This document shows positions 11,179-49,936 of a DNA stretch of 64,000 nt, piece by piece. The notes beneath the pieces were generated by a model. That model was not told where the DNA came from and searched no databases. It worked only from the letters and a program-made list of their open reading frames with translations. This DNA comes from an archaeon (GTDB lineage Archaea; Nanobdellota; Nanobdellia; SCGC-AAA011-G17; GW2011-AR17), in the NCBI GenBank assembly GCA_043825775.1, contig JBDRRK010000002.1, forward strand, positions 1,308 to 65,307, given 5' to 3'. Positions within the stretch are counted from its first letter, which is position 1; each line of letters begins with the position of its first letter. The position numbers were made by a program, and so were the translations under genes.

Positions 11179-11262
11179 TGTGCGGGACAGGGTTCGAACC
11201 TGCGTAAGCACTAAGCTACTGGGTCCTAAGCCCAGCCCGTTTGACCACTCCGGCACCCGCAC
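11179..11262 (-). tRNA. tRNA-Leu(UAG), intronless
   Basis: Reverse complement GTGCGGG...CTGGG-CT-TAG-GA-CCCAG, long variable arm, GCAGG-TTCGAAC-CCTGT, CCCGCAC-A. Confidence 0.95.
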
Positions 11263-36134: not shown

Positions 36135-39100
36135 ATGAAAAGAGGTATGATTATAATAATTATTCTTTTAAGTATATGTTTTGTTAGTGCTGATAATGGT
36201 TGTTGTGCTGAAAAAAATGGAATGTATTGTGTTTATACTGCTGAAGAAGAGTGTACTGGTGATTTTGTAGCTAATGCTGTTTGTGATGATGTTTCTTTTT
36301 GTGATTTAGGTTGTTGTGTTACCGATGATGGTATTTGTGCTCAGCAAACTGGTAAGTATACTTGTGAACAGAATAATGGGGAATGGAGTGATGATGCTAG
36401 TTGTAGTTATTCAGAGTGTGATAAAGGGTGTTGTCAGTTTGGAAATGAGTATAGTTTTACAACTGCTTCTCATTGTTCTGCTGTATATGCTGATTATGAA
36501 ATGGAACCTTCTTTTGATGCTAGTGTTACTGATGAAAGTGAATGTGTTATGAATAATTATTTGGAAGATTATGGTTGTTGCATTACTGAAGATTCATGTG
36601 GTTATGTTACTGGAGAGGAATGTGTTGCTGAAGGGGGGGATTTAGAGAAGGACATCAATACAGGTTATGGTTTTTATGGTGGACAGAGCTGTAAGAGTAT
36701 GGGTGCACTTTTGGATACTGGTGATTATGAGGCTTCTTGTGATTGTGTTTCTACAGATAGTTTAAAATGTACAACTGACCATGATGTTTATGAAACAAAT
36801 ACTTGTGGTGATGTTATAATTGTTGATTCTTGTAGTTATCCTAATTATGCTTGTTCTGAAATGAGTGGAAGTGCGGAGTGTATTTCAACTTCATGTGAAG
36901 ATACTTTTTCTTTTGAGGAGAATAGTGAAACTTATTTTAAAGATTTTAATAGTTATAATGTGTTTTATGATGATAATGGTAAATTAGGTGTAAAAGAGTT
37001 TACACTTGGTGGAAGAAAAGATAATTTTGATACTTGGTGTATTTATGAGAGTCCAGTAGGTAGTTTTAGAGATAGGGTTGGTAGTCAGCAATATAGATCT
37101 TATTGTATTGATGGTGTGGAGTTTATTGAAAGCTGTGGTGAGGCAAGAGAGAAATATTGTGCTATGTATTATGATTCTGATAGAGATGAATTTCATGGAG
37201 ATTGTGTAGATAATAACTTTGAGGAATTTTATGGTTTTGAAGATGTGGAAACTGAAGAAGGTGTAGATAGTGAAAGATTTTATGGTTCTATTAATTATCC
37301 TGTTGAAGATTCTGAAGAAAATTTAGGAGTATCAACTGTTTCTCTTGCAGGAAATAATTATTGTGAATCTGCTTCTATAACCTGTGAAGTTGTTTATGGT
37401 GATTCTGAGTATAAAAATTCTGAAAAATATGGTTGGGAGCCTTATTTGAATACAATCTGTTTAAGACCTACTTTTGCTGCAACAGCTGCAGAGTATTGTA
37501 GTTCAAGAGGAGATTGTGGGATGGAATTGAATGTTCTTGGAATTGAAGGGCAGGATTCTGTAGAGTCATTTAATATTGATTATGATACTTCATTTATTGA
37601 TGGTCTTTGGATTGTTAAAGATGAAAAAGAAATGAACTTTGGAATTGGTCCAACTTGTTTTGATCCTAATGTTATAGGTAAAGAACCACAATTAGCAGTT
37701 ACTTTGCAAGGGCTTGATGGATTTAGTTCTTTTAAATTTATGAGTGAGATGATGTTTATGGTTACTGTTGCACAACCAGATCCTGCGACTTTTATAACAA
37801 CCTTAATTCAAACTTTAATTGTACTTTCTGAACAAGAAGATAATTGTCAATTAATAGAAAAAAATACTTTTGAAGATGATTATTATACAGGTTTAAAAGA
37901 AATTTTTGTTGTTAATGTAAATTTTCTTTCTGATGATATGATACCTTTATGGTTTCCAACTGAAGAAATGGTTTATTATAGTACTTATTGGTTAGAGAGT
38001 TGTGATTCTTCAGATGATAAAGGAAATATGTTAAGTTATAATTTGGGAACAAATTTAGATACTGGAGATTTAGATTTAGATCCAGTTTCACAAGAAAATA
38101 CAGAACAAAGTGTATTTTTTAATTCATTTATTTCTCCTTTATCTGGAGGAATAAGCAATTTGATTATATTGGGTGCAGATATTTCTAAAGTTCAATATAA
38201 TCAACTTAGTGGAGATCCAATTGAATTTGATTCTACAGATCCTCTTACAAATTTACTTTCTGATGCTTTAATTGAAGAATCTAGTGAGGTTAGAAATAAT
38301 TTTGTTATATCAAATGAGTATGGTTTGATAAATCAATTTAAGAGTATAAAACCTTGGATAATGAATAAAAAAGCTTTAACTCCCTATTCTTCAAATCTTG
38401 GAACTTTGTCTAGTTTAGAACATCCAGATGCTTTAACACAATTTGTTGGTTATAGGGCTGCTGATTGTAGTACTGGAGATTCAGAATGGATTGGATTGAT
38501 AGATGAAGATGAGCATTTATTACCTGCTTCAGTAATATATCAATGTGGAGAATGGCAAGCTCCTACTGGAGGAGAGTATTGTGAGTTGTGTGATACTCCA
38601 ACTGAAGAGGGTGGAATATGGTTTAGTAAGGATGGAAGACCTTTTTATGGTGCTGAATGTAATAAATATAGATGTGAAAGTTTAGGAAGTGATTGTAGAT
38701 ATATTGAACAGAATAGGGGAAGTGATCAACCTAAGTGTGTTTCAGTTGATTGTGAACCTGGAGTTCAAGTTGTTAGAACTATGTATGAAGAAGCAATTGA
38801 TGAGTCTACTGCAAATTATCCAGAAATGATTACAAAAGACGAACAACAATATGGTTATACATTAACAAATGTTCCTCCTTCAACTTTATTTTCATTTGGA
38901 GTTGAAACAGATGAATTTGCAGCTTGTAAATTTGTTTCAGATGAAGCAGTACAACAAGTTTTTGAAGCTAATGAAGTAAGTAATTTTGAAGGTTTACTTG
39001 CTATAGGTTATACTTTAGAAGATTTATATGATTTAATGAGTGGAGAAGGTGTTACAAATACTCCTTCTTGGGGAACTGAATGTAGTCCTGAAGATGAAGA

Positions 39101-40109
39101 TTGTAGTCCTGGAATGACTAAACAACATAACATTACTGCAAATGTTATGGGTAGTAGTGAAGAATCAATTTATTATGTTTGGTGTAAAAATCCTTGTGGA
39201 AAAATTAATGATGCTCCCTATATGATTAGATTAGAATCTTCTGAGATTGATCCAACTTATCCTCCAACAATTCAGAGTATTAGTCCTAGTGATGGAGGGT
39301 ATGCAAGATATGATGAAGATAGTGTTGAGACTTATGTTTATACTGACAGACCTGCTACTTGTAGATATTCAAATGCACCAAGTGATAGTTATTCAATAAT
39401 GCAAAATGAATTTTCACAATGTCAGGATGAGAACTTGAATATTATTAATGGAAATTATCAGTGTAGAGAATTTTTAGATATTGGTGATGACTTGAATACA
39501 TTTTATTTTTTATGTAAAGATAATTATGGAAATGAGATGACACAAGCAAAAGAGTGGAGTATCACTAAAAGTGATCCCCTGTTAATTTCACAAACTTCAC
39601 CTTCTGGAACTTTGTATTACAATGATGTTACATTGCAAGTTAGAACACAACAAGGTGCTGAGCAAGGAAAAAGTATATGTTATTTTAAAGAAAATAATCA
39701 GAATAATTATGTTCAAATGTTTGAGAGTAGTGATAATGAATTGTGGTTGCAAGAGTTAAGTGATTTATCAAAAGGAACTTATGAATATGATATTTATTGT
39801 GAAGATGTTGCAGGTAATAGAAATGAAACTACTATTTCATTTACGGTTGATGTTGATAGTTATGCTCCACAGATTGAAAATATTTATTATTTGGGAAGTA
39901 CTCTTTATGTTGTGACTGATGAGGTTACTGATTGTGAGTATGAAACTAGTTCATTTTCTTTTGGAAATGGTTTTTCAATGGCTGGTTCTGCAAGTACTGA
40001 TCATAGTTTTACTGTAACACCTGGCTTTAATGTTTATTATGCAGTTTGTGAAGATGTTTATGGTAATCAAAATTCTCCTTTAATTATAAATTTAGAATAT
40101 TTACAGTAA
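36135..40109 (+). CDS. Large Cys-rich secreted protein, paralog 1 (1324 aa)
   Basis: Signal peptide; CC repeats; WCIYE..DRVGSQQYRxxC; GDCG; WQAPTGGEYCELC; C-terminal Ig-like repeats (CEDVAGN). Confidence 0.85.
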   Translation: MKRGMIIIIILLSICFVSADNGCCAEKNGMYCVYTAEEECTGDFVANAVCDDVSFCDLGCCVTDDGICAQQTGKYTCEQNNGEWSDDASCSYSECDKGCCQFGNEYSFTTASHCSAVYADYEMEPSFDASVTDESECVMNNYLEDYGCCITEDSCGYVTGEECVAEGGDLEKDINTGYGFYGGQSCKSMGALLDTGDYEASCDCVSTDSLKCTTDHDVYETNTCGDVIIVDSCSYPNYACSEMSGSAECISTSCEDTFSFEENSETYFKDFNSYNVFYDDNGKLGVKEFTLGGRKDNFDTWCIYESPVGSFRDRVGSQQYRSYCIDGVEFIESCGEAREKYCAMYYDSDRDEFHGDCVDNNFEEFYGFEDVETEEGVDSERFYGSINYPVEDSEENLGVSTVSLAGNNYCESASITCEVVYGDSEYKNSEKYGWEPYLNTICLRPTFAATAAEYCSSRGDCGMELNVLGIEGQDSVESFNIDYDTSFIDGLWIVKDEKEMNFGIGPTCFDPNVIGKEPQLAVTLQGLDGFSSFKFMSEMMFMVTVAQPDPATFITTLIQTLIVLSEQEDNCQLIEKNTFEDDYYTGLKEIFVVNVNFLSDDMIPLWFPTEEMVYYSTYWLESCDSSDDKGNMLSYNLGTNLDTGDLDLDPVSQENTEQSVFFNSFISPLSGGISNLIILGADISKVQYNQLSGDPIEFDSTDPLTNLLSDALIEESSEVRNNFVISNEYGLINQFKSIKPWIMNKKALTPYSSNLGTLSSLEHPDALTQFVGYRAADCSTGDSEWIGLIDEDEHLLPASVIYQCGEWQAPTGGEYCELCDTPTEEGGIWFSKDGRPFYGAECNKYRCESLGSDCRYIEQNRGSDQPKCVSVDCEPGVQVVRTMYEEAIDESTANYPEMITKDEQQYGYTLTNVPPSTLFSFGVETDEFAACKFVSDEAVQQVFEANEVSNFEGLLAIGYTLEDLYDLMSGEGVTNTPSWGTECSPEDEDCSPGMTKQHNITANVMGSSEESIYYVWCKNPCGKINDAPYMIRLESSEIDPTYPPTIQSISPSDGGYARYDEDSVETYVYTDRPATCRYSNAPSDSYSIMQNEFSQCQDENLNIINGNYQCREFLDIGDDLNTFYFLCKDNYGNEMTQAKEWSITKSDPLLISQTSPSGTLYYNDVTLQVRTQQGAEQGKSICYFKENNQNNYVQMFESSDNELWLQELSDLSKGTYEYDIYCEDVAGNRNETTISFTVDVDSYAPQIENIYYLGSTLYVVTDEVTDCEYETSSFSFGNGFSMAGSASTDHSFTVTPGFNVYYAVCEDVYGNQNSPLIINLEYLQ

Positions 40110-40143
40110 GGTTTTTAAATAACTAAGTTATTAATTCTTTATT

Positions 40144-43100
40144 ATGAGGGGTGATTTTCTTAAGTCTAAAGCAATTTTTATGACTTTTCTAATTATTGCT
40201 TCTATTTTTACTGTTTACAATATTAAGTTGGTTACTGCAGAAGATGAAACTAATTATTGTTGTGAAAAGACTACAGATGGAGAATATTGTAGGTATACTT
40301 CACCTTCTGAATGTGACTCTGCTTATTCTTCTGCTGCTGTAACTTGTGAACAAACTTCTTTTTGTGAGGGTGGCTGTTGTATTTCTGATGAAGGAAAGTG
40401 TTCTAAGAATGTTCCAAAAAGTGTTTGTGAAAATACTGAAGGATATAGTTGGGGAGAGGGTGCTGAGTGTGATATTGCTGCTTGTGAAAAACAATGTTGT
40501 ACTGTAGCTGATTCAATTTGTTCATATACTACAGCTGCAAATTGTGAAGTTATTGATTCTGGTTATCCTGAAGTTGAAGCAGAGTTTGTTGATGTTGGTT
40601 CTGAATTAGAATGTGTTGATATTTGTACTGAATCAAATAAAGGTTGTTGTGTTAGTCCTGATGGTTGTGAGTATACAACAAAAGGAATGTGTGAGAATGC
40701 TGAGATTAATTTAGAAGGTGGAACTGGTTTTTATGATAATAGATATTGTTCTGATTTGAATTTGTGTGGTTGTGTTGAACATTTTGAAAAGAGATGTGTT
40801 AATGAAGATGTTTATTGGTTTGATAGTTGTGGAAATCAAGAAGAGGTTGCAGAAGATTGTGATTATACAAGAGGTTCATGGTGTGGAACTGATGAAGTTG
40901 GAGAAGCTTATTGTAAAGATGTTAATTGTGAAACTAGTTTTGATGGAATTTATAATATTGAAGGAGCAAATGTAAAGAATGTTCATGATTCAACTTTAGG
41001 AGATGCAAAACAGCATGGTGAAAGTTGGTGTTTATATGAAGGTCCTGCTGGAGATTATTTAGATAGACCTGGTTCACAACATTATAGAACTTATTGTTAT
41101 TTTGGTGAACAAGTAATTGAACCTTGTAGAGATTATAGAGAGGAAATTTGTTTACAGTATCCTATGGGAAGTGAAGATGGAGAAAGAGGAAGTGCTTGTT
41201 TAGATAATGATATTTATGAAGAAAGTTTAATTCAAACAGAAGTATCTACTGTTCCTACTGGAAATAAATTCTGGAGTGAGAGTCAAGAAGTTTCAACTTG
41301 TTCTGAAGGTTCTGTAAGTTGTGATGTTGTTTTTGTTAAAGAGAGTAGAACTGCAACAAAATGGAAATGTGCTGAAAATTGTGAATGTCTTTCTGATTAT
41401 TGGATGATTAATGCTTCTAAATGGTGTAGTTCAAAAGGAGATTGTGGTGCAAATTTTAATATTTTAGAACAATTTTCTGATGATGGTTTTTATATGACAA
41501 GAAGTCAAGATACTTTAGAAGCAAATGATCAATATACTGCAATTGCTTATGATTTATTATGTGAATATGAATATAATTCTCCTGTGTATGGTGAGATTGG
41601 AGCTTTATGTGCAAATTCTTGTACTGGTTTTGATAATGCTCCTCAAGCAATTGCAGCATCAATGTTGACTGGAATTCCACATCAAGTTGGTTCTTTACCA
41701 TCATGTGCTTATTTTAATTCTTTAAATCAAACTTCTTGGTATACTGGACATTATGATGGAGACGAAAGAAGATTAGATGAGGAATATTTACATGATGGAC
41801 AGAATATGAAAGATGCTTATGGTGTTCATGGAGGATTGTTGGCAATGTCTGAGGTGATTGGTACTTTTGATTTACAAGGAATAGCTGATGCTTGGTTATC
41901 TGATTATCAAAAAGGTGGACAGATTGTAGCTGTTATTGCTGGTGCATTTGCTGCTTCTATTATTTTAACAGCATATATTGTAGGAACAGCTATTGGTGTT
42001 ACAGGTACAGTTGCTGCATTAGGGGCAGGATTTATGTTAACCCCTGCTGTAGTTGGAACAGCTGTAGCAACCCAAATATCCACAGCTATAACTACTACTA
42101 CAACTGCAGCAGCAGCATCAGCAGCAATTCAACCAGTGGCAACTGCAACAATTTCAGCAGCATCAGCAGGTCCAGTTGGTTTTGTCGTTGCTTTAGTTCT
42201 TGTTGTTATAGTTATTTTAACTTTAATCTTCACTTCAGGAGGAGAGACAACAACAATAACTGTTACTGCAAATTGTGAAGGTTGGCAACCACCTACTGGA
42301 GGAGAATTTTGTGAGTTGTGTGATATCCCTGTTTCAGAAGGTGGGTTGGCTATCGACGATGGTTATGGTAATGTTCTTCCTGGATATGAATGTACTGAAT
42401 ATAAATGTAAATCATTAGGTGCTGCTTGTGAATATATTACTGAAAATTCAGGAACAGATAGAGAGAAATGTTACAATGCACATGTAAATGATGTGAATCA
42501 TCCTGTTATAACTCCAAATACAGAAATATTTGATTTATATGGTTATGATTATGAACAAACAAGTGATAGGTTTATTGAAGTTTTTGATATTGAACCTTAC
42601 ACCAAATTTAATTTTGGAATTATAACTGATGAATTAGCTCAATGTAAAATTGATACTAACTTACCAGATGATTATGATTCAATGTTAGAATTATTTCCAG
42701 ATTCTTATTATTCAAAATCTAAAAATCAGACAAGAGTTTTAGTTCCTGAAGAAGAAGTTAATTATTATATTAGATGTCAAGACTTGAATGGCAATTATAA
42801 TATAGATGCTTTTACATTTAAAGTTCATGCTTTAGCTGGTGAAGATTTACAGGCTCCAATTATCAAGGCTACTGATATTGCATCTGGTTCTTTTGTAGCA
42901 AATGATGTTACACAACCAGTTGTTACAGTGTTTACGAATGAACCTGCTCAATGTAAATGGAGTACTGGTGACCAAGATTATGATATTATGGATCAATGGA
43001 TGTTGTGTTCTGGTTCAAGTTTAGCTTCACAAACAGTTTACTTTGATTATAGTTGTACTGCTGCATTAAATATTACACATCCTGAAACAAATTATTATTA

Positions 43101-43647
43101 CTTTGCTTGTGAAGATAATAATGGAAATCAGAATTCAGATACTTATGCATTTACTTTACAAGGTTCAGAACAATTAAATATTGATAGGGTTTCACCGAAT
43201 GGAACTTTGTATTATGATGATGTTGCTTTACAAGTTTATACTGCAGTTGGTGCACAGGATGGAAAGGCTGTTTGTTATTACAACAATATTGCATTTTTCA
43301 CAACCAATAATACTTACCATGAACAATTGTTTACTGGTTTAAGTGAGAGTTCATATAGTTATGATATTTTATGTCAAGATGTTGCTGGTAATCAAAATGA
43401 AACTATTATTTCATTTACAGTTGATGTTGATGAATCAGCACCAGAATTAATAGAAATTTATCAAAAAGAAAATACTTTATATTTTACTACAGATGAAACT
43501 TCAACTTGTGAATATTATTATGAAGACTTTGATTTTGGTGAGGGTTTAAACACAGAAGGAACTATTGCAATGGCAGATGCAACAACTTATTATATCAAGT
43601 GTGAAGATGAATTTGGTAACGAGGGAACATTTATTATAGAAGTTTGA
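40144..43647 (+). CDS. Large Cys-rich secreted protein, paralog 2 (1167 aa), with central Gly/Ala hydrophobic segment
   Basis: Same motif order as paralog 1; hydrophobic ~105-aa core at ~41920-42234. Confidence 0.85.
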   Translation: MRGDFLKSKAIFMTFLIIASIFTVYNIKLVTAEDETNYCCEKTTDGEYCRYTSPSECDSAYSSAAVTCEQTSFCEGGCCISDEGKCSKNVPKSVCENTEGYSWGEGAECDIAACEKQCCTVADSICSYTTAANCEVIDSGYPEVEAEFVDVGSELECVDICTESNKGCCVSPDGCEYTTKGMCENAEINLEGGTGFYDNRYCSDLNLCGCVEHFEKRCVNEDVYWFDSCGNQEEVAEDCDYTRGSWCGTDEVGEAYCKDVNCETSFDGIYNIEGANVKNVHDSTLGDAKQHGESWCLYEGPAGDYLDRPGSQHYRTYCYFGEQVIEPCRDYREEICLQYPMGSEDGERGSACLDNDIYEESLIQTEVSTVPTGNKFWSESQEVSTCSEGSVSCDVVFVKESRTATKWKCAENCECLSDYWMINASKWCSSKGDCGANFNILEQFSDDGFYMTRSQDTLEANDQYTAIAYDLLCEYEYNSPVYGEIGALCANSCTGFDNAPQAIAASMLTGIPHQVGSLPSCAYFNSLNQTSWYTGHYDGDERRLDEEYLHDGQNMKDAYGVHGGLLAMSEVIGTFDLQGIADAWLSDYQKGGQIVAVIAGAFAASIILTAYIVGTAIGVTGTVAALGAGFMLTPAVVGTAVATQISTAITTTTTAAAASAAIQPVATATISAASAGPVGFVVALVLVVIVILTLIFTSGGETTTITVTANCEGWQPPTGGEFCELCDIPVSEGGLAIDDGYGNVLPGYECTEYKCKSLGAACEYITENSGTDREKCYNAHVNDVNHPVITPNTEIFDLYGYDYEQTSDRFIEVFDIEPYTKFNFGIITDELAQCKIDTNLPDDYDSMLELFPDSYYSKSKNQTRVLVPEEEVNYYIRCQDLNGNYNIDAFTFKVHALAGEDLQAPIIKATDIASGSFVANDVTQPVVTVFTNEPAQCKWSTGDQDYDIMDQWMLCSGSSLASQTVYFDYSCTAALNITHPETNYYYFACEDNNGNQNSDTYAFTLQGSEQLNIDRVSPNGTLYYDDVALQVYTAVGAQDGKAVCYYNNIAFFTTNNTYHEQLFTGLSESSYSYDILCQDVAGNQNETIISFTVDVDESAPELIEIYQKENTLYFTTDETSTCEYYYEDFDFGEGLNTEGTIAMADATTYYIKCEDEFGNEGTFIIEV

Positions 43648-43677
43648 AAACATTTATAAATGAGAGAGTCTTAAAAA

Positions 43678-44448
43678 ATGATTATGAATAAAAGAGGTCA
43701 GACAACTGTATTTATTATAATTGGAATTGTAGTTGTTATTATTGTAGCTTTGTATATTGTACTTACTCAAACTAAAATTATTCCTCCTTTATTAGGTGGT
43801 GGTGATGCCAGTGATCAGATGAGTGATATTGATGAGCATATTTCTGAATGTATGCAAGAGGTTGGTGGAGAATATTTAACTAGGATAGGACAGCAAGGAG
43901 GATATTTAGGAGTTGTTCCTGATTCATATAGAACTTATAATGATTCTTCTGTTAGTTATTTGTGTTATAACCAACCTGGACAGATTACATGTTCAAATAG
44001 ATTGTTGACTGTTGCACATATGGAAAATGAATTAGAAGAGGTTATTTCACAAGCTTTGGAATCTTGTATTAATGTTTATGATTATAGTGATGATGTTAGA
44101 GCTGCTGAGGATTGGACTTTACAAGTTGAAATTTTTAATTCAGCTGTTGACATGACTTTAGTCTATCCTGTTGAAGTTATAAAAAGTGATGAAGATAAAC
44201 AGAAAAAAGAAGAGTTTACATATACTTTTGATGATGTTCCTTTAGGTGAATTATATGATGTTTCAATGGATATTGTAAATTCAGAAGCTTCATTAGGAGA
44301 TTTTGATCAGTTGTTGTATATGTTACAGAAATTTTCAAAATATAATATTTACAAATATAGACCTTACCCTGATAAAATTTATCAAGTTAAGTTAAGGGAA
44401 GGTGGATATGTATTCCAGTTTGCAATTGAAGGCGAAGATACTACATAA
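43678..44448 (+). CDS. Class III signal peptide (pilin-like) protein
   Basis: MNKRG/QTTVFIIIGIVVVII; IGQQGGY; ends FQFA. Confidence 0.82.
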   Translation: MIMNKRGQTTVFIIIGIVVVIIVALYIVLTQTKIIPPLLGGGDASDQMSDIDEHISECMQEVGGEYLTRIGQQGGYLGVVPDSYRTYNDSSVSYLCYNQPGQITCSNRLLTVAHMENELEEVISQALESCINVYDYSDDVRAAEDWTLQVEIFNSAVDMTLVYPVEVIKSDEDKQKKEEFTYTFDDVPLGELYDVSMDIVNSEASLGDFDQLLYMLQKFSKYNIYKYRPYPDKIYQVKLREGGYVFQFAIEGEDTT

Positions 44449-44494
44449 GCCAAGTCTAACTACTGTAAAAAGCCTAATGACACCAATTCTTAGG

Positions 44495-44545
44495 TTTCAA
44501 AAAAGTCACGCACTGCGTGACCAATTGACTTAGATTTATTATAAG
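44495..44545 (+). repeat. Degenerate copy of an internal yhcG segment with perfect 7-bp inverted repeat
   Basis: 40/51 identity (counted by eye) to 44911-44961; GTCACGC-ACT-GCGTGAC at 44505-44521. Confidence 0.85.
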
Positions 44546-44649
44546 TGGAGTGGGGGGTTGTTACCTGTGACTTTATTACATTGAATTTCTGAAAGATTTC
44601 CGGATTTTTTTAGTAAGAGTTTATTAAAAATGTTGATGACTGTTAGTTT

Positions 44650-45651
44650 ATGCTACCAGACAAAACTTATCAAACAATAAAAGAAGTATTAGAAAAAGCA
44701 AGAAATTATGTATATAATCAGGCTAATTTTGCTATGGTTCAAGCTTATTGGGAGATTGGGAGGGTTATTGTTGAAGAGGAGCAGAAGGGCAAAAGAAGGG
44801 CTGAGTATGGTAAGAAATTGATAAAAGAGATTTCTAAGAGGTTGACTAGGGATTATGGAAAAGGGTTTGATGAATCAAATTTAAGGTATATTAGATTGTT
44901 TTATTTATCTTTTCCAAAATGTGACTCACTGCGTCACGAATTGACTTGGACCCATTATAGGATGATTATGAGACTAGATCAAGAGAATATAAGAAATTTC
45001 TACATGATTGAATCAATAAACAATAAATGGAGTACAAGGGAGTTAGATAGACAGATAAATTCCCTTTTGTATGAGAGAATTTCATTAAGTAGAGATAAAG
45101 AAGGAGCAAAAAAATTATCATTAAAAGGGCAGGAAGTTTTGGAGCCAAGAGATATCTTAAAAGATCCTTTTGTTTTGGAATTTTTGGATTTAAAAGAAAA
45201 TTATTCTGAAAAGGATGTTGAAGAAAAGATAATTAATAGATTAAAAGAATTTTTACTTGAATTGGGGAAAGGGTTTTCTTTTGTTGGTAGACAGAAGAGA
45301 ATAACTGTTGATGGTGACCATTATTATATTGATTTGGTTTTTTATAATTACTTGTTGAAATGTTTTGTTTTAGTTGACTTGAAGATGGGGAAGTTAACTC
45401 CTAAAGATATTGGGCAGATGGACTTTTATGTTAGATTTTTTGATAAAGAAGAGAGATTAAAAGAAGATAATCCAACTGTTGGAATTATTCTTTGTAAAGA
45501 TAAGAAAAAAATGATGATTAAATATACTTTGTTGGAGGAAAGTAAACAAGTATTTGCTTCCAAGTATAAGTTATATCTTCCTACAGAAGATGAGTTAAAG
45601 AAAGAATTAGATTATTACATTTATGATGAATCTACTAGTGAAAAGGATTAA
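44650..45651 (+). CDS. yhcG: YhcG/DUF1016 family PD-(D/E)XK nuclease-like protein
   Basis: YWEIGRVIVEEEQ, GKGFDESNL, LTWTHY, WSTREL, KDPFVLEFL, FLLELGKGFSFVGRQ, IDLVFY, GQMDFY, GIILC, ASKYKLYLPTEDEL. Confidence 0.93.
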   Translation: MLPDKTYQTIKEVLEKARNYVYNQANFAMVQAYWEIGRVIVEEEQKGKRRAEYGKKLIKEISKRLTRDYGKGFDESNLRYIRLFYLSFPKCDSLRHELTWTHYRMIMRLDQENIRNFYMIESINNKWSTRELDRQINSLLYERISLSRDKEGAKKLSLKGQEVLEPRDILKDPFVLEFLDLKENYSEKDVEEKIINRLKEFLLELGKGFSFVGRQKRITVDGDHYYIDLVFYNYLLKCFVLVDLKMGKLTPKDIGQMDFYVRFFDKEERLKEDNPTVGIILCKDKKKMMIKYTLLEESKQVFASKYKLYLPTEDELKKELDYYIYDESTSEKD

Positions 45652-45718
45652 TATGGTGTAAATGAGAGTTAGGGTATAAGAAATCTTTATAAATATTAAG
45701 AAGATATAAATATTTAAT

Positions 45719-48700
45719 TTGAAAAGAGGTAATATAATATTAATTATTTGTATATTGATAGTTCTTTTAGTTTCAAGTGTAAGTGCGTTGAATGCTTGTT
45801 GTGAAGTTACAAGAGATGGTGAGTATTGTAGATATGCTGATGAGAGTGAATGTGCTTCTGATTCCCAGGCTGCTTATGCAACTTGTGAGCAAACTTCTTA
45901 TTGTCAAACGGGTTGTTGTTATTCTTCTGATTCTGGTTTATGTTACAAAAATACTGCAAAAGCAAGATGTGAAGAAGAGGAAGGGAGTACTTGGGTTGAT
46001 TCTGCAAATTGTGAAATAGAACAATGTGATTTGGGTTGTTGTGTTTTAGCTGACCAAGCTTTTTTTGTTACTGAAGTTAAATGTAAAGAAACTGCTTCAC
46101 AGTTTGAAGATTTAGAAATTAATTTTGATAATGATATTGCAACTGAATATGAATGTTTGGAATCTGTAAAGAATCAAGATTGGGGTTGTTGTGTTGAAGG
46201 TGATGATTATGAATTTACAACAAGAGATAATTGTGGAAGTGCTTCATCTGAGGTAACTGTTGATTTTGTTGAAGAAGGTTTTCATCAAGGAATGTTATGT
46301 TCAAATGATTTGTTAAGTGCTGATTGTGCAAAACAACAGTATACTGGTTGTTATGAAGGAAAGGTTTACTGGTATGATAGTTGTGGAAATAGAGAGAATA
46401 TTTATGATGTTGATAAGACTGCAAGTTTTAATGATGGTTATATATTAGAAGATGGAAGTTGTACTTTGAATAGTGCTTATGATTCTAGTTGTGGAAATTG
46501 TGATTATCCAACTGGAACTGTTTGTGGTTCAGATGTTGGAAATGATATGCCTGTTGGTGAGTTTACTTGTGTGGATATAAATTGTTATGATACTTATGAT
46601 GATGATGTTAGTCCTGCAACTGGTGGAGATAAGTTGAATGGTGAGTCCTGGTGTGTTTATGATTCCTTTACTGGAGAGGCAAGGGATGCTGTTGGTTCAA
46701 GACATTATAGATATTTGTGTATTAATGGTGAAGAGGTAGTGGAGCCGTGTACTGATTTTAGAGAACAGATTTGTATTCATGGTATTTTAAGTGCAGATGT
46801 TTTAGGAACTTTGGAATCTTTAAGGTTAAGTGATAATAATAATTATGTTGAAGCTGCTTGTAGGGAAAATAGAAATGAGGATTGTGATGCTTGTAATGAT
46901 TTGGCTACTGAAGATGAAATAATTTCTTGTTGTTCAAATGAAGATTATAGAGATTGTTATTTTTTAGAGGGTGAAGTTGCTAGAGTTGAAAGAGGTACTA
47001 ATATTCCTTTGACTAAATTACAAGAAGAGAATGAGAATTTAGCTTTGGATGCTGTAGTTGGTGGTACTTGTGTTCCACAGATTCCTCCTGGTGAGAAATT
47101 CTGGACTGATAATGGTGATGCTGATAGTGCTTCAACTTCAGATGTTTGTAATGTTGCAACAAGAGAGTGTACTGCTACATGGAGAATTGGTGGTTGGAAG
47201 AAATTATTTGGTGGTAAGGGGAATCCGGATGCTTGGAGTATTGTTGAAGAGAGTCCTGAAGGTTGTACTGAAAGGAGTTGGTTAGTTTCTCAAAATACAC
47301 TTTGTAAAGCTCAAGGTGATTGTGGTGCTTATTATAATTATTTAGGTGAAGCTGGTTTTGATGGTTTTACAAGTGATATGTTAGGAGAAGAGTTTTTCTT
47401 TAATTATGATGAGTTGGATTCTTCAGATTTGGATGATTGGGATTATTTGATTAATACTGGTGGGGGAGAGATAAAGTATTATGGTCCTAAGTCTAGATAT
47501 TTCTATACTAATCCCGCTTTTGCAGTTGGAATTGCTTCTTTTACTGCTGGGGGAATTGCAAATGTAGTTTCTTGTAGTGAAGCTAAAGGTGCTGGATTGA
47601 GTACTAAGTTTGGAGATGCAGGAAATAGTTTACAGAGTATTTTATCTTTTGGTTCTACTGCTGCTGGAGGAGCAAAAGCTTTAGGTTTAGCTACTGGTGT
47701 TGATATGGTTACTGGAAATGCTGTTGTTGCTGATGATCCATGTAGTATTTATGATTTGTATGCATGTAATGAACAATATAACACTTTTTACATATGTGAA
47801 GAAGATGATATAGGAGATAAGTATTGGAGAATAAAAGAAGCTTGTGGAACCTCTGCATATTGCGATGCTGACTTATGTTCTATTGGAACAAGCAAAGATG
47901 ATTGTTGTATAGATTTACCTGAAGAAGAAATTGTTACTGAAGAAGATACAACAATTCCAGAGACAAAAGATTTGGTTCCTGAACAAAAAAAAGTTGTTGA
48001 AGAAAAACCAACTGAAGAGAAAGTTGCAGAAACAATTGGAAATTATATTATTCAAGGAGGAGATAGTCTTTCAGAAATTGCAAGTAAATGTGGTACTACA
48101 GTTGATGCTTTACAAAAATCAAATCCTTCTATAACTGATGTTGATAAAATTGTAGAGGGTTCAAGGTTAAATATTCCTAATTTCGATGATTGTAAATTTG
48201 GAACAACTAAAAGTACTGTTGAAAGTGCAGTTGGTGCTGACAAAACTTTAGACTTTATGGAAGGGATTGGATGTTTTTTAACAGGAGCTACTCCTATTGT
48301 TGGTTTGTTTGGAAAACCAGCTGGTACAACTACTGAAGGTTGGGAAGATAGAGTTACAGAAGCTGCTGGAGATGGTGCAACTGGAATTATAAGCTCAATT
48401 AAAAAAGCTAAAGGGGCAAAAACAGTTTCAAGAGTTTCAAATGTTGTTACAATTGCAATGGCTGCTTATCTTGCAGTAGAATACTTAGCTGATAATGAAA
48501 CTACTATTACTTATACTGCTGAATGTAATCAGTGGCAACCACCTAAGGGTGGAGAGGATTGTGAATTGTGTAATGATGAGAATAAACCTTGTTCAGAATA
48601 TAGATGTAGATCTTTAGGGGCTGCTTGTGAATTAATTAATCAAGGTTCAGAAAATGAAACATGTATATCTACAAATGTTAATGATGTTAATAGTCCTCAG

Positions 48701-49936
48701 TTAAGTGTAAATTTAGATTTATTAAGTGATGATTATACAATTAAAGAAACAACAGAGGAAGGAAATAAAGGATTTATACTTAATGAGTTGGTTCCACCTT
48801 TCACACCTGTTCAATTAGGTATTACAAGTGATGAACCGGCAACATGTAAGTATGCAACGCAGCCAGGATTGGAGTATGATGAGATGAGTTATACTTTTGG
48901 TTCTGAATTATACTTGTATAATCATGCTTTACTAATGTCTTTAGGAGATGGGGTTACTATTGAAGAAATTTTAGCTTTAACTAATGGAGAATATACAATT
49001 TATGTAAGATGTTCTGATTATCAAGGTAATGCAAATGAAAGAGATTATTTCATTAGATTTACCGTTGAAGACACGCCGGATTTAAGTCCTCCACAGATTA
49101 TGTTTACCTCTGTAAATGATGGAACTTACTTGGCTTATAATGTTAATGAGACTAGCTTTGCTATTTATACTAATGAGCCTGCAACATGTAAGTGGGATTT
49201 ACAAGATACTTCTTTTAATGTTATGGAAAATGAAATGAGCTGTGTTGAAAGTAGTTATCAGCAATCATCTATTTATTATGGAACATATCCTTGTTCAGGA
49301 ACAATTAAAGGAGAGAATGATGAGTTGAATTATTTCTACTTTAAATGTCAAGATAGAGAAGGAAATACTAATGAAGATAGTTTTAAATTTACTTTGAAGT
49401 CTTCTGACGAGGAATTAACAATTAGTTCAATGGAACCTGAAGGTGTTTTATATAATGATTCTATTACAGTTACTGTTGAAACAGATGGTGGAGCTGATAG
49501 TGGAGTTTCTGAATGTGGATTTAGCATGGATACAAATGATTTCCAAGATATGACTTTGTTTTTGAATACTAATAGTTCAAAACATTCACAGGAATTGAAT
49601 TTATTTACTGGAGATTATACTTTGTATGTTACATGTCAAGATGTAGCTGGTAATATGGATTCAACAAGTAGAGAGGTTAGTGTAGAAACGGATGATAAAG
49701 GGCCAAGTATCGTTAACTTTTACATTGATGAAGCTTATTATACTTTAATTTTAGAAACTAATGAGGAAGCTGCTTGTGAATATGCAACTGAACCATTTAC
49801 CTTTGGAGAAGGAGTAGAGATGTCAGGGACTGTTGTTCATGAGGCAACAATTGGACAATTATTATATTATGTTACTTGTGAGGATACAAGAGGGAACCAA
49901 GGTTCTTACATATTAGATATATCATTGTGGGTGTAA
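45719..49936 (+). CDS. Large Cys-rich secreted protein, paralog 3 (1405 aa), with central LysM domain
   Basis: Same conserved ends as paralogs 1 and 2; LysM YIIQGGDSLSEIASKCGTTVDALQKSNPSITDVDKIVEGSRLNIP at 48044-48178. Confidence 0.87.
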   Translation: MKRGNIILIICILIVLLVSSVSALNACCEVTRDGEYCRYADESECASDSQAAYATCEQTSYCQTGCCYSSDSGLCYKNTAKARCEEEEGSTWVDSANCEIEQCDLGCCVLADQAFFVTEVKCKETASQFEDLEINFDNDIATEYECLESVKNQDWGCCVEGDDYEFTTRDNCGSASSEVTVDFVEEGFHQGMLCSNDLLSADCAKQQYTGCYEGKVYWYDSCGNRENIYDVDKTASFNDGYILEDGSCTLNSAYDSSCGNCDYPTGTVCGSDVGNDMPVGEFTCVDINCYDTYDDDVSPATGGDKLNGESWCVYDSFTGEARDAVGSRHYRYLCINGEEVVEPCTDFREQICIHGILSADVLGTLESLRLSDNNNYVEAACRENRNEDCDACNDLATEDEIISCCSNEDYRDCYFLEGEVARVERGTNIPLTKLQEENENLALDAVVGGTCVPQIPPGEKFWTDNGDADSASTSDVCNVATRECTATWRIGGWKKLFGGKGNPDAWSIVEESPEGCTERSWLVSQNTLCKAQGDCGAYYNYLGEAGFDGFTSDMLGEEFFFNYDELDSSDLDDWDYLINTGGGEIKYYGPKSRYFYTNPAFAVGIASFTAGGIANVVSCSEAKGAGLSTKFGDAGNSLQSILSFGSTAAGGAKALGLATGVDMVTGNAVVADDPCSIYDLYACNEQYNTFYICEEDDIGDKYWRIKEACGTSAYCDADLCSIGTSKDDCCIDLPEEEIVTEEDTTIPETKDLVPEQKKVVEEKPTEEKVAETIGNYIIQGGDSLSEIASKCGTTVDALQKSNPSITDVDKIVEGSRLNIPNFDDCKFGTTKSTVESAVGADKTLDFMEGIGCFLTGATPIVGLFGKPAGTTTEGWEDRVTEAAGDGATGIISSIKKAKGAKTVSRVSNVVTIAMAAYLAVEYLADNETTITYTAECNQWQPPKGGEDCELCNDENKPCSEYRCRSLGAACELINQGSENETCISTNVNDVNSPQLSVNLDLLSDDYTIKETTEEGNKGFILNELVPPFTPVQLGITSDEPATCKYATQPGLEYDEMSYTFGSELYLYNHALLMSLGDGVTIEEILALTNGEYTIYVRCSDYQGNANERDYFIRFTVEDTPDLSPPQIMFTSVNDGTYLAYNVNETSFAIYTNEPATCKWDLQDTSFNVMENEMSCVESSYQQSSIYYGTYPCSGTIKGENDELNYFYFKCQDREGNTNEDSFKFTLKSSDEELTISSMEPEGVLYNDSITVTVETDGGADSGVSECGFSMDTNDFQDMTLFLNTNSSKHSQELNLFTGDYTLYVTCQDVAGNMDSTSREVSVETDDKGPSIVNFYIDEAYYTLILETNEEAACEYATEPFTFGEGVEMSGTVVHEATIGQLLYYVTCEDTRGNQGSYILDISLWV

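Follow-up and report, generated by a model that had tools for sequence, protein, structure and literature searches.

In a 64,000-nt stretch of the genome of a Nanobdellota archaeon (contig JBDRRK010000002.1 of assembly GCA_043825775.1; hereafter the window), a gene of the DUF1016/YhcG nuclease family, yhcG, holds a short palindrome within its coding sequence, and a near copy of this palindrome lies upstream of the gene. The in-gene palindrome is the yhcG copy of a two-fold symmetric DNA element carried by almost every DUF1016/YhcG gene, whose arms, lacking a fixed sequence, stay complementary to each other and whose encoded peptide follows the DNA. We give a probability of roughly one half to the composite reading that this family element is kept by arm-to-arm copying plus selection and that the upstream copy is an orphan relic at the edge of an insertion. 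Loci and genomes outside the window are referred to by L and G numbers, respectively.

A co-varying repeat pair at the yhcG locus

An earlier note on this DNA had drawn attention to a repeat, 44495-44545 against 44911-44961, and recounting on the sequence gave the same 40 matches in 51 positions. A repeat-finding tool delimited the pair as 44495-44543 and 44911-44959 (49 nt, 80%, spacing 416), the longest direct repeat in 43600-46000. Each copy contains a palindromic core (Table 1). The upstream core is the perfect palindrome that had been described, whereas the symmetry ascribed to the in-gene core, which codes for C-D-S-L-R-H (residues 91-96), is incomplete, one of its seven pairs being T.G. 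The proposed compensated C/G swap is real: at the third stem position both bases have changed, C-G in the upstream core standing against G-C in the gene. The description of both copies as GC-rich islands holds for the 17-nt cores (11 and 10 G+C of 17) but only weakly for 100-nt windows (0.32-0.37, compared with 0.23-0.33 nearby).

The pair is unique in the genome (942 kb in 17 contigs, 96% complete). A degenerate core pattern matched two sites only, the upstream and the in-gene one, and its reversed control none; perfect palindromes with a stem of at least 7 bp and a 3-nt loop number 159, in 3 of which, including the upstream core, the stem GC content reaches at least 50%. A covariance model built from 66 family members returned the in-gene site (44902-44955; 52.4 bits, E value 1.5e-11) and the orphan (44499-44531; 26 bits, E value 6.4e-4), the next match having an E value of 0.7. 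Both searches for further copies, as the earlier note had suggested, thus end with two, both at yhcG. Pattern uniqueness, palindrome rarity and the covariance-model matches together rule out a chance origin of the pair.

The two cores differ in folding. The orphan core folds well both as DNA (-8 kcal/mol, z score -3.9, equalled by 0 of 200 shuffles) and as RNA (-11.5 kcal/mol, z score -3.5); the in-gene core alone folds weakly (DNA z score -1.26, RNA z score -0.45). Were a hairpin required for function, the in-gene copy would here be a weakened one. A search of Rfam over 44300-45200 gave nothing near the gathering score. Contigs assembled from four sequencing runs over 43900-46100 showed no joint or indel at either palindrome, rare variants being invisible to contigs, and one 254-nt contig from a second groundwater sample spans the orphan without difference. 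The whole stretch occurs in one groundwater-metagenome run, possibly its source. Contigs of other organisms, from three groundwater runs, match yhcG only at 44909-44957, the palindrome plus the LTWTHY stretch, with 4-6 differences in 43-49 nt and unlike flanks, making this the gene's best-conserved DNA across alleles.

Dyad symmetry is maintained across the DUF1016/YhcG family

That dyad symmetry is maintained by compensatory change in the segment before LxWxHY, as the earlier note had conjectured, is strongly supported by other DUF1016 genes. Nearly all of 23 homologs from related genomes carry palindromes of 6-13 bp in one codon register with differing arms, among them the left arms GGAACGC, TCCACGC, GTCAGAC, GTGAGAC, TCCTCCGC, CTCTCAGC and CTCGCACC. 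The palindromic DNA lies two codons before L[ST]W[ST]HY, with its centre codon 6 codons before the W codon, and the window's in-gene palindrome sits at this canonical register. Around the central Leu/Val, the residues at -1/+1 form the pairs T-S, A-R, A-L, S-T, P-V and P-G, which are dictated by base pairing of the first codon positions; the -1 codon is always NCN. Bacterial plasmid yhcG genes (Clostridium, Hydrogenophaga, Klebsiella, Leptolyngbya, Arthrobacter, Methylomonas, Legionella, Frondihabitans and Piscinibacter) have the same element with arms of up to 13 bp. In E. coli yhcG, located between yhcF and nanQ, the palindrome pairs at 17 of 18 positions and codes for SAKIWQTLSAKSFP.

For a quantitative assessment 67 genes were gathered, one of which was dropped for an N. 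In the remaining 66, aligned on the W codon without gaps, each of stem pairs 1-7 is Watson-Crick in 51-55 genes and occurs as 3-4 pair types, and the Watson-Crick sum over 13 pairs amounts to 554, compared with 150-292 in six shifted controls. In a MAFFT alignment of the same genes, the covariation score is 0.597, against 0.165 ± 0.014 for shuffles (reached by 0 of 500) and 0.05-0.13 for slid partners, with 76.5% of cells paired versus 28-38% in controls. All of 80 further loci, from named archaeal and bacterial genomes of many phyla, gave a model match at the expected place. Archaeal and bacterial genes taken together (146) comprise 100 distinct 19-nt cores, 82 with at least 6 of 8 pairs and 26 with all 8; in shifted registers at least 6 pairs were found in at most 4 of the genes counted. 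Several of the non-intact cores reflect displacement of the palindrome by an insert, e.g. in L069.

Because related sequences share changes, events were also counted on a FastTree tree of 133 proteins from which the palindrome-coded residues had been removed (13 of the 146 were excluded as truncated or holding X). Watson-Crick pair types switched at least 4, 12, 10, 12, 30, 30, 22 and 11 times at pairs 1 to 8, a total of at least 131 events, each a double change. The same behaviour is seen at short range: some Clostridia genes share 92-95% identity in their flanks (795 nt) and yet have 4 differences in the 19-nt core, symmetric compensated pairs among them, so the core changes faster than its flanks while its symmetry is kept. 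Paralogs within one genome have different arms. In L008, L012, L018 and L020, in-frame tandem modules, each with a palindrome of its own, add 13-39 residues to the loop that the segment forms in the protein model.

A DNA element rather than a peptide motif or an RNA hairpin

Synonymous positions obey the symmetry. In the NCN codon seven codons before the W codon, the third base is A in 36 of 40 canonical genes, compared with 33% of NCN codons elsewhere in the same genes; in the Leu/Val codon that follows (W-6) it is G in 37 of 39, again versus 33% elsewhere. The effect is large, even if gene kinship makes its binomial p-values an overstatement, and since it concerns synonymous sites, a protein-level cause of the covariation was rejected. 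The loop reads A-N-T in 45 of 59 genes, which extends complementarity up to a single central base. Such an extension would be useless to a hairpin and would be expected of a two-fold symmetric duplex site or of arm-to-arm copying.

Mismatches point the same way. Otherwise intact stems contain 12 G.T, 15 A.C and 15 other mismatches, and distinct cores 24, 17 and 30, respectively; in neither count is there the wobble tolerance expected of a cis-regulatory RNA hairpin. Because synonymous sites follow the symmetry and G.T mismatches are not favoured, we read the palindrome, on sequence grounds, as a DNA element and not as an RNA hairpin or a peptide motif. There is accordingly scarcely any chance, in our estimate, that the in-gene copy serves as an RNA hairpin in mRNA stability or translational pausing and the orphan as a 3'-end hairpin of the preceding 256-codon gene. 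Such a role would suit the good RNA fold of the orphan, whose core starts 57 nt past the upstream stop codon, and the place of an E. coli orphan 16 nt past the yhcG stop between convergent genes; yet the in-gene copy folds as RNA no better than shuffles, the first and third loop bases are kept complementary although this is of no use to a 1-nt loop, and no Rfam family matches. Archaeal termination is not known to need hairpins.

Orphan modules and arrays recur beside other yhcG genes

Copies of the module outside the coding sequence are not confined to the window. In L030 the upstream copy shares its arms with the palindrome of its own gene (22 of 27 matches, with compensated differences), and the same holds for L081, an actinobacterial plasmid, in which arms are likewise common to both copies and differences compensated. 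Several upstream copies read as yhcG peptide, namely those of L051 (SSALRSQLSW), L078 (PIIPMVSGQLA*), L017, L030 and L081, as well as that of L041 (WNALRSEL), which is of a differing allele type. Copies also occur at the 3' side, within the last codons of the open reading frame (ORF) in L004 and just downstream of it in L015. The E. coli orphan (L188:1772-1796) is a perfect 11-bp stem of the yhcG type, 16 nt past the yhcG stop codon between the convergent yhcG and nanQ; it may act as a terminator.

Two loci contain arrays. Within 200 nt upstream of a Methanoperedens yhcG (L110:1211-1385) there are four different modules, ~40-55 nt apart, each of an allele type other than the gene's own. At L029:2546-3067 (minus strand), a fragment corresponding to the N-terminal part of yhcG (query residues 4-98) precedes several palindrome modules in tandem, and a full-length yhcG gene of a different type comes directly after them.

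Upstream copies are sporadic and not a constant part of the yhcG surroundings: model matches at an E value of at most 0.05 were obtained upstream in 1 of the 80 further loci (L110) and in a minority of the first 73 sources. A general enrichment of palindromes upstream of yhcG was considered and dropped. The first set was modestly enriched, 9 loci containing 10 palindromes at -290 to -460 relative to the W codon; the second set of 80 loci is not, its -400 bin holding 4 palindromes and its -300 bin 0, like other bins.

The upstream copy in the window lies at the edge of an insertion

In two same-genus genomes and one same-family genome (G001, G002 and G005), a homolog of the 256-amino-acid gene is followed, after ~40-50 nt, by a homolog of the 1405-amino-acid gene. 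In the window these neighbours lie at 43678-44448 and 45719-49936, and the shared intergenic promoter-like stretch resumes near 45677. The three genomes have no yhcG and no module match (best E value 0.076, elsewhere in the genome). This synteny identifies the intervening ~1.2 kb as an insertion relative to those genomes, with the orphan ~20 nt inside its left edge. No clear target duplication was found at the insertion edges, and 44449-45718 holds no further ORF of at least 120 amino acids beside yhcG, hence no recombinase in the insert.

The orphan reads in frame as a piece of yhcG: FQKSHALRDQLT*IYYK, against FPKCDSLRHELTWTHYR in the gene. Its stop codon, TAG, stands where the gene has TGG (W100), and the later differences are G>A or C>T. 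The 18-codon ORF reported here by the earlier note, 44477-44533 (MTPILRFQKSHALRDQLT*), is indeed in register with FPKCDSLRHELTW of the protein; it is probably a relic frame and not a gene. With filters off, the family profile aligned 14 residues in the three frames of 44401-44660 (E value 0.14), which argues against any longer pseudogene around the orphan. The refuting case named in advance, a decayed yhcG pseudogene whose homologs show no selection for symmetry, is therefore not what was found: similarity stops at ~14 codons, and homologs keep the symmetry. Over 45 nt, the orphan is nearest to the module of the resident gene (35 of 45), then to that of L042 (34 of 45), the median over 66 family modules being 23; its nearness to the resident module suggests derivation from the allele group of that gene. 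The 17-nt core of the orphan recurs exactly in L127, where it is an in-gene tandem module.

Table 1 Features of the yhcG locus in the window (positions as in the window).
Feature	Position	Strand	Description
~1.2-kb insertion (orphan, promoter region, yhcG)	44475..45676	+	By synteny; edges good to ~10 nt
18-codon open frame over orphan	44477..44533	+	Putative relic reading frame, probably not a gene
Orphan palindrome module	44495..44543	+	Putative ~50-nt relic of yhcG segment reading ..FQKSHALRDQLT*IYY
Orphan palindrome core GTCACGC-ACT-GCGTGAC	44505..44521	.	Perfect 7-bp inverted repeat, 3-nt loop
Possible archaeal TATA-like box	44620..44630	+	~20-30 nt before ATG at 44650; suggested by sequence only
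yhcG-family gene	44650..45651	+	333 codons plus stop; ORF list, Pfam, PADLOC
In-gene palindrome core GTGACTC-ACT-GCGTCAC	44921..44937	.	6/7 Watson-Crick pairs plus T.G, 3-nt loop

The YhcG protein and its predicted dimer

Pfam assigns the helical domain DUF1016_N (PF17761) to residues 10-143 (1.3e-43; profile positions 2-137 of 137) and the PD-(D/E)XK nuclease domain YhcG_C (PF06250) to residues 168-320 (5.2e-60). E204, D228 and K245 are invariant across a 17-sequence alignment. PADLOC lists the protein as the single-gene defence candidate PDC-S02 (PDLC04807, 9e-141), a match in name only. A sequence search of the PDB gave no relevant solved relative, and no NCBIfam family matched. Foldseek found the nuclease core weakly similar to NucS/EndoMS and the junction resolvase Hjc (E values 6e-3 to 3e-2). 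The biochemical function of DUF1016/YhcG is given as a prediction in the sections of PMC1189080 covered, and the corresponding part of PMC9881135 mentions the family, with YhcG genes often riding in restriction-modification loci (Table 2 therein).

The AlphaFold model has a mean predicted local distance difference test score (pLDDT) of 68, rising to 85-92 in the N-terminal domain. In this model, residues 88-99 form the connection joining helix 75-87 to helix 100-106, the LxWxHY helix (pLDDT about 87-91). A symmetric homodimer is predicted via the first two long helices (residues 1-69), with a score of 0.59 against 0.00 for the best control, a contact agreement between runs of at least 52% and a partner pLDDT of at least 66. 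In a benchmark, 20 of 30 proteins solved as one-chain pairs reached the mark for the dimer score, compared with 1 of 23 among those solved as single chains.

The gene is present in single copy in the genome and lies between surface-protein genes, outside any defence island. Its nearest relatives in named genomes include genes of Nanoarchaeota, Methanoperedens and Methanophagales assemblies and of many bacteria.

Weighing the explanations

Under the composite reading, template switching at quasi-palindromes during replication would copy one arm onto the other, so that changes appear on both arms, and selection acting on the DNA would guard the element from decay. We infer that template switching is the simplest way to the many double changes and the perfect dead copies. 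Selection is invoked because copying alone should not prevent loss over deep divergence, and because it does not explain a palindrome at one spot of the gene only. As a reader of the DNA, the predicted symmetric YhcG dimer would be the most economical candidate, given the predicted homodimer and the weak likeness of the nuclease core to NucS/EndoMS and Hjc. The element is also a hot spot of in-frame duplication and of breakage or joining; among the three functions that the earlier note had proposed, a recombination or hairpin site fits best, in view of in-frame duplication, arrays, and fragment and cassette edges. The orphan, in turn, would be what remains (~50 nt) of a yhcG segment belonging to the same allele group; it would have arrived at the left edge of a ~1.2-kb yhcG-bearing piece and stayed fully palindromic by way of one compensated double change. 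It is probably not a gene, and probably has no dedicated operator role.

A number of observations weigh against this composite reading. Selection is not separable from mutation bias in the present data, and template switching is deduced rather than seen. The FastTree topology inflates the count of 131 switches to some extent, and kinship among the genes, many of them near-identical, overstates the significance of the third-base bias. The window's own yhcG has an imperfect palindrome whose folding resembles that of shuffles. In the contigs of the four runs neither palindrome is rearranged, which proves little. The left edge of the insertion is placed only approximately, no donor carrying this orphan came to light, and an upstream copy is absent from the closest relative, L108 (70% identity). 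Orphans were found by palindrome search or by a model that rewards pairing, so that decayed relics are missed and the impression that relics stay perfect is biased. Finally, several upstream orphans precede the in-gene site by ~350-430 nt (the window has 416, with similar values in L030, L051, L078 and L081), a spacing that a pure relic model does not predict and a two-site model would.

The element might instead be neutral, i.e. a functionless quasi-palindrome that perpetuates itself since template switching outpaces point mutation in a tolerant loop, with orphans and arrays as by-products. We regard this as possible, if somewhat doubtful. It accommodates arms that are free in sequence and kept in symmetry alone, dead orphans that are still perfect with compensated differences (the window, L030 and L081), a core that outpaces its flanks in near-identical genes, and a loop tolerating insertions of 13-39 residues; moreover, template switching is reported, in the sections of PMC5941160 covered, to conserve non-coding inverted repeats in Proteobacteria. 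Loss of the element, however, is almost never seen: of the 100 distinct cores, 82 still hold an intact palindrome where the W anchor predicts it, and the element persists down to ~30% protein identity in Bacteria and Archaea. It also occupies one place in the gene only, whereas a mutational process should make and lose repeats anywhere. Function enters in a different way if the palindrome serves the YhcG dimer as its own private cis site, through which the nuclease regulates or spares its own gene, allele by allele. We hold this to be unlikely; if it were true, orphans and arrays would be spare sites or joints for exchange of N-terminal modules, and RhuM-type passenger genes of restriction loci may obey a similar logic. 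A two-site operator, in which a YhcG dimer binds the upstream and in-gene palindromes (by looping or as a roadblock) and limits a potentially harmful nuclease through allele-specific sites, is quite improbable. The autoregulatory operator of the earlier note gains from the homodimer predicted via residues 1-69 (0.59 versus 0.00), from symmetry to a single central base as in protein-binding sites, from the large overlap in arm sequence between upstream and in-gene copies (in the window, L030 and L081), from the similar spacing of upstream copies and from paralogs with differing arms in one genome. It loses, however, from the rarity of upstream copies, from orphans that lie downstream (L004, L015 and E. 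coli) or belong to another allele type (L041), from orphan flanks that read as yhcG peptide and so mark gene relics, and from the difference between the window's two cores at symmetric position 3. A silent cassette or gene-conversion donor, with the orphan and the arrays storing loop versions or marking swap points of N-terminal modules, is very improbable. The orphan does encode a differing loop in frame (SHALRD versus CDSLRH), L110 has its four different upstream modules, L029 its N-terminal fragment and tandem modules upstream of a full gene, and foreign contigs match yhcG at 44909-44957 only; but this third proposal of the earlier note is weakened by the absence of exchange in the contigs, by a single orphan in the genome with a stop codon inside, and by an insert without a recombinase.

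Relation to known systems

The E. coli YhcG/DUF1016 protein (PF17761 plus PF06250; COG4804; PDC-S02) has both domains and the conserved acidic and lysine residues that are also found here, and its gene, too, has a palindrome at this position, as well as an orphan beyond the stop codon. The window copy differs in being short (333 amino acids, single module), in its setting within a surface-protein gene cluster of a DPANN-type archaeal genome and in its slightly degraded palindrome. Short hairpin-forming palindromes with co-varying arms that adjoin a gene are known from the repetitive extragenic palindromic (REP) and REPIN elements with their RAYT transposases. Unlike these, the window's palindrome has no dispersed family, both of its copies being at yhcG, and its main copy is coding; the Y1 (HUH) transposase profile PF01797 had 0 matches in the 96%-complete genome, whereas 6 of 14 control genomes were positive. 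The C-boxes of restriction-modification systems are upstream palindromes, conserved in sequence, that are read by a dimer which checks a nuclease gene. The constant yhcG site, in contrast, is inside the coding sequence and free in sequence, and a dimer is here its candidate reader.

Palindromic elements in frame within genes have reportedly been described by Ogata et al. in Rickettsia, as mobile repeats of ~100-150 bp in many unrelated genes of one genus. They likewise involve palindromic DNA that is tolerated in coding sequence and adds peptide segments; the yhcG element differs in keeping to one family and one codon position, with two copies in the genome, both at yhcG. Perfect inverted repeats in frame within functional genes, with protein and DNA symmetry likewise maintained jointly, also occur in Nematomorpha mitochondria. 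There, as far as the covered part of the report goes, a single organelle lineage has many long repeats, reaching 284 bp, spread over many of its genes (PMC6649704), as opposed to one short element (7-18-bp arms) at a fixed position in one family of Bacteria and Archaea. Quasi-palindrome correction by replication template switching is described in the consulted parts of PMC5941160 and PMC8794818. It would change both arms at once and restore imperfect repeats to perfection, which matches the compensated changes among near-identical yhcG genes; in those parts it is known for non-coding repeats, RNA genes and mutational hot spots and not for a family-wide, position-fixed coding element.

We found no published description of a palindrome in DUF1016/YhcG genes in a search that lay outside the supplements (PMC4316617, phylogeny; PMC9881135, locus tables); the DUF1016 literature, in the portions covered, deals with phylogeny and gene neighbourhood. 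New here are the archaeal instance with its insertion mapped against same-genus genomes, the event counts on a tree, the synonymous-site and wobble tests, and the recurrent orphans and arrays. Few uncharacterised nuclease families are as common as YhcG/DUF1016 on plasmids, on integrative elements and in restriction loci; E. coli K-12 has a copy, and a DNA symmetry that overrides protein sequence at a fixed spot in Bacteria and Archaea offers a concrete handle on its function. The yhcG palindrome likewise lends itself to testing whether a coding palindrome can be conserved over deep time by template switching alone. In annotation, palindrome modules explain variable 'inserts' and many split or truncated models of the YhcG family, as well as short hairpins beside yhcG genes that resemble terminators or small ORFs.

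Other palindromes, settings and neighbouring genes

Many loci have a second palindrome at ~+626 nt relative to the W codon (e.g. L108:2410-2426, L139:2407-2423 and L050:2391-2409). It is AT-only, covers a conserved K-Y-K-L-Y-L motif near the C-terminus, is near-constant in sequence without covariation and may follow from AT-rich codons. Among RhuM-family genes of related genomes, 4 of 11 (L087, L089, L090 and L091) have a perfect palindrome of 6-7 bp with a 3-nt loop at one motif, x-A/R-K-F/I-A/R-x, for instance GTGCAA/TTGCAC coding for A-K-F-A and TCCGGA/TCCGGA coding for R-K-F-R; RhuM may be a second passenger-gene family that follows the same palindrome rule. Unrelated palindromes with 8-bp stems lie in non-coding DNA near yhcG in two related genomes (L021:3605-3623, L029:612-630 and 3369-3387, L014:516-534) and are possibly a genome-specific repeat. 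Repeated palindromes in L007 were rejected as module copies, as they look like tRNA.

As to genomic setting, yhcG-family genes of conjugative plasmids (L066, L070 and L071) overlap the stop codon of a site-specific integrase gene; that of L068 lies between a type I methylase and an S subunit gene, and that of L079 between the BREX gene pglX and a Shedu gene. Two genomes of the window genome's family (G017 and G023; 1.4-1.5 Mb) have 10-11 YhcG matches including intact genes, fragments and stop-bearing copies, a very high load for small genomes, compared with one copy in the window genome and none in its two same-genus genomes.

The region 36135-49936 of the window is a co-directional cluster encoding very large Cys-rich proteins (1324, 1167 and 1405 amino acids) and the 256-amino-acid protein. 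Of the Cys-rich proteins, the 1405-amino-acid one carries a LysM domain. Related genomes show the cluster in synteny, and yhcG is inserted within it. Elsewhere in the window, three tRNA genes (8427-8527, 11179-11262 and 59205-59332) span 84-128 nt and, as is known from archaea, probably contain introns.

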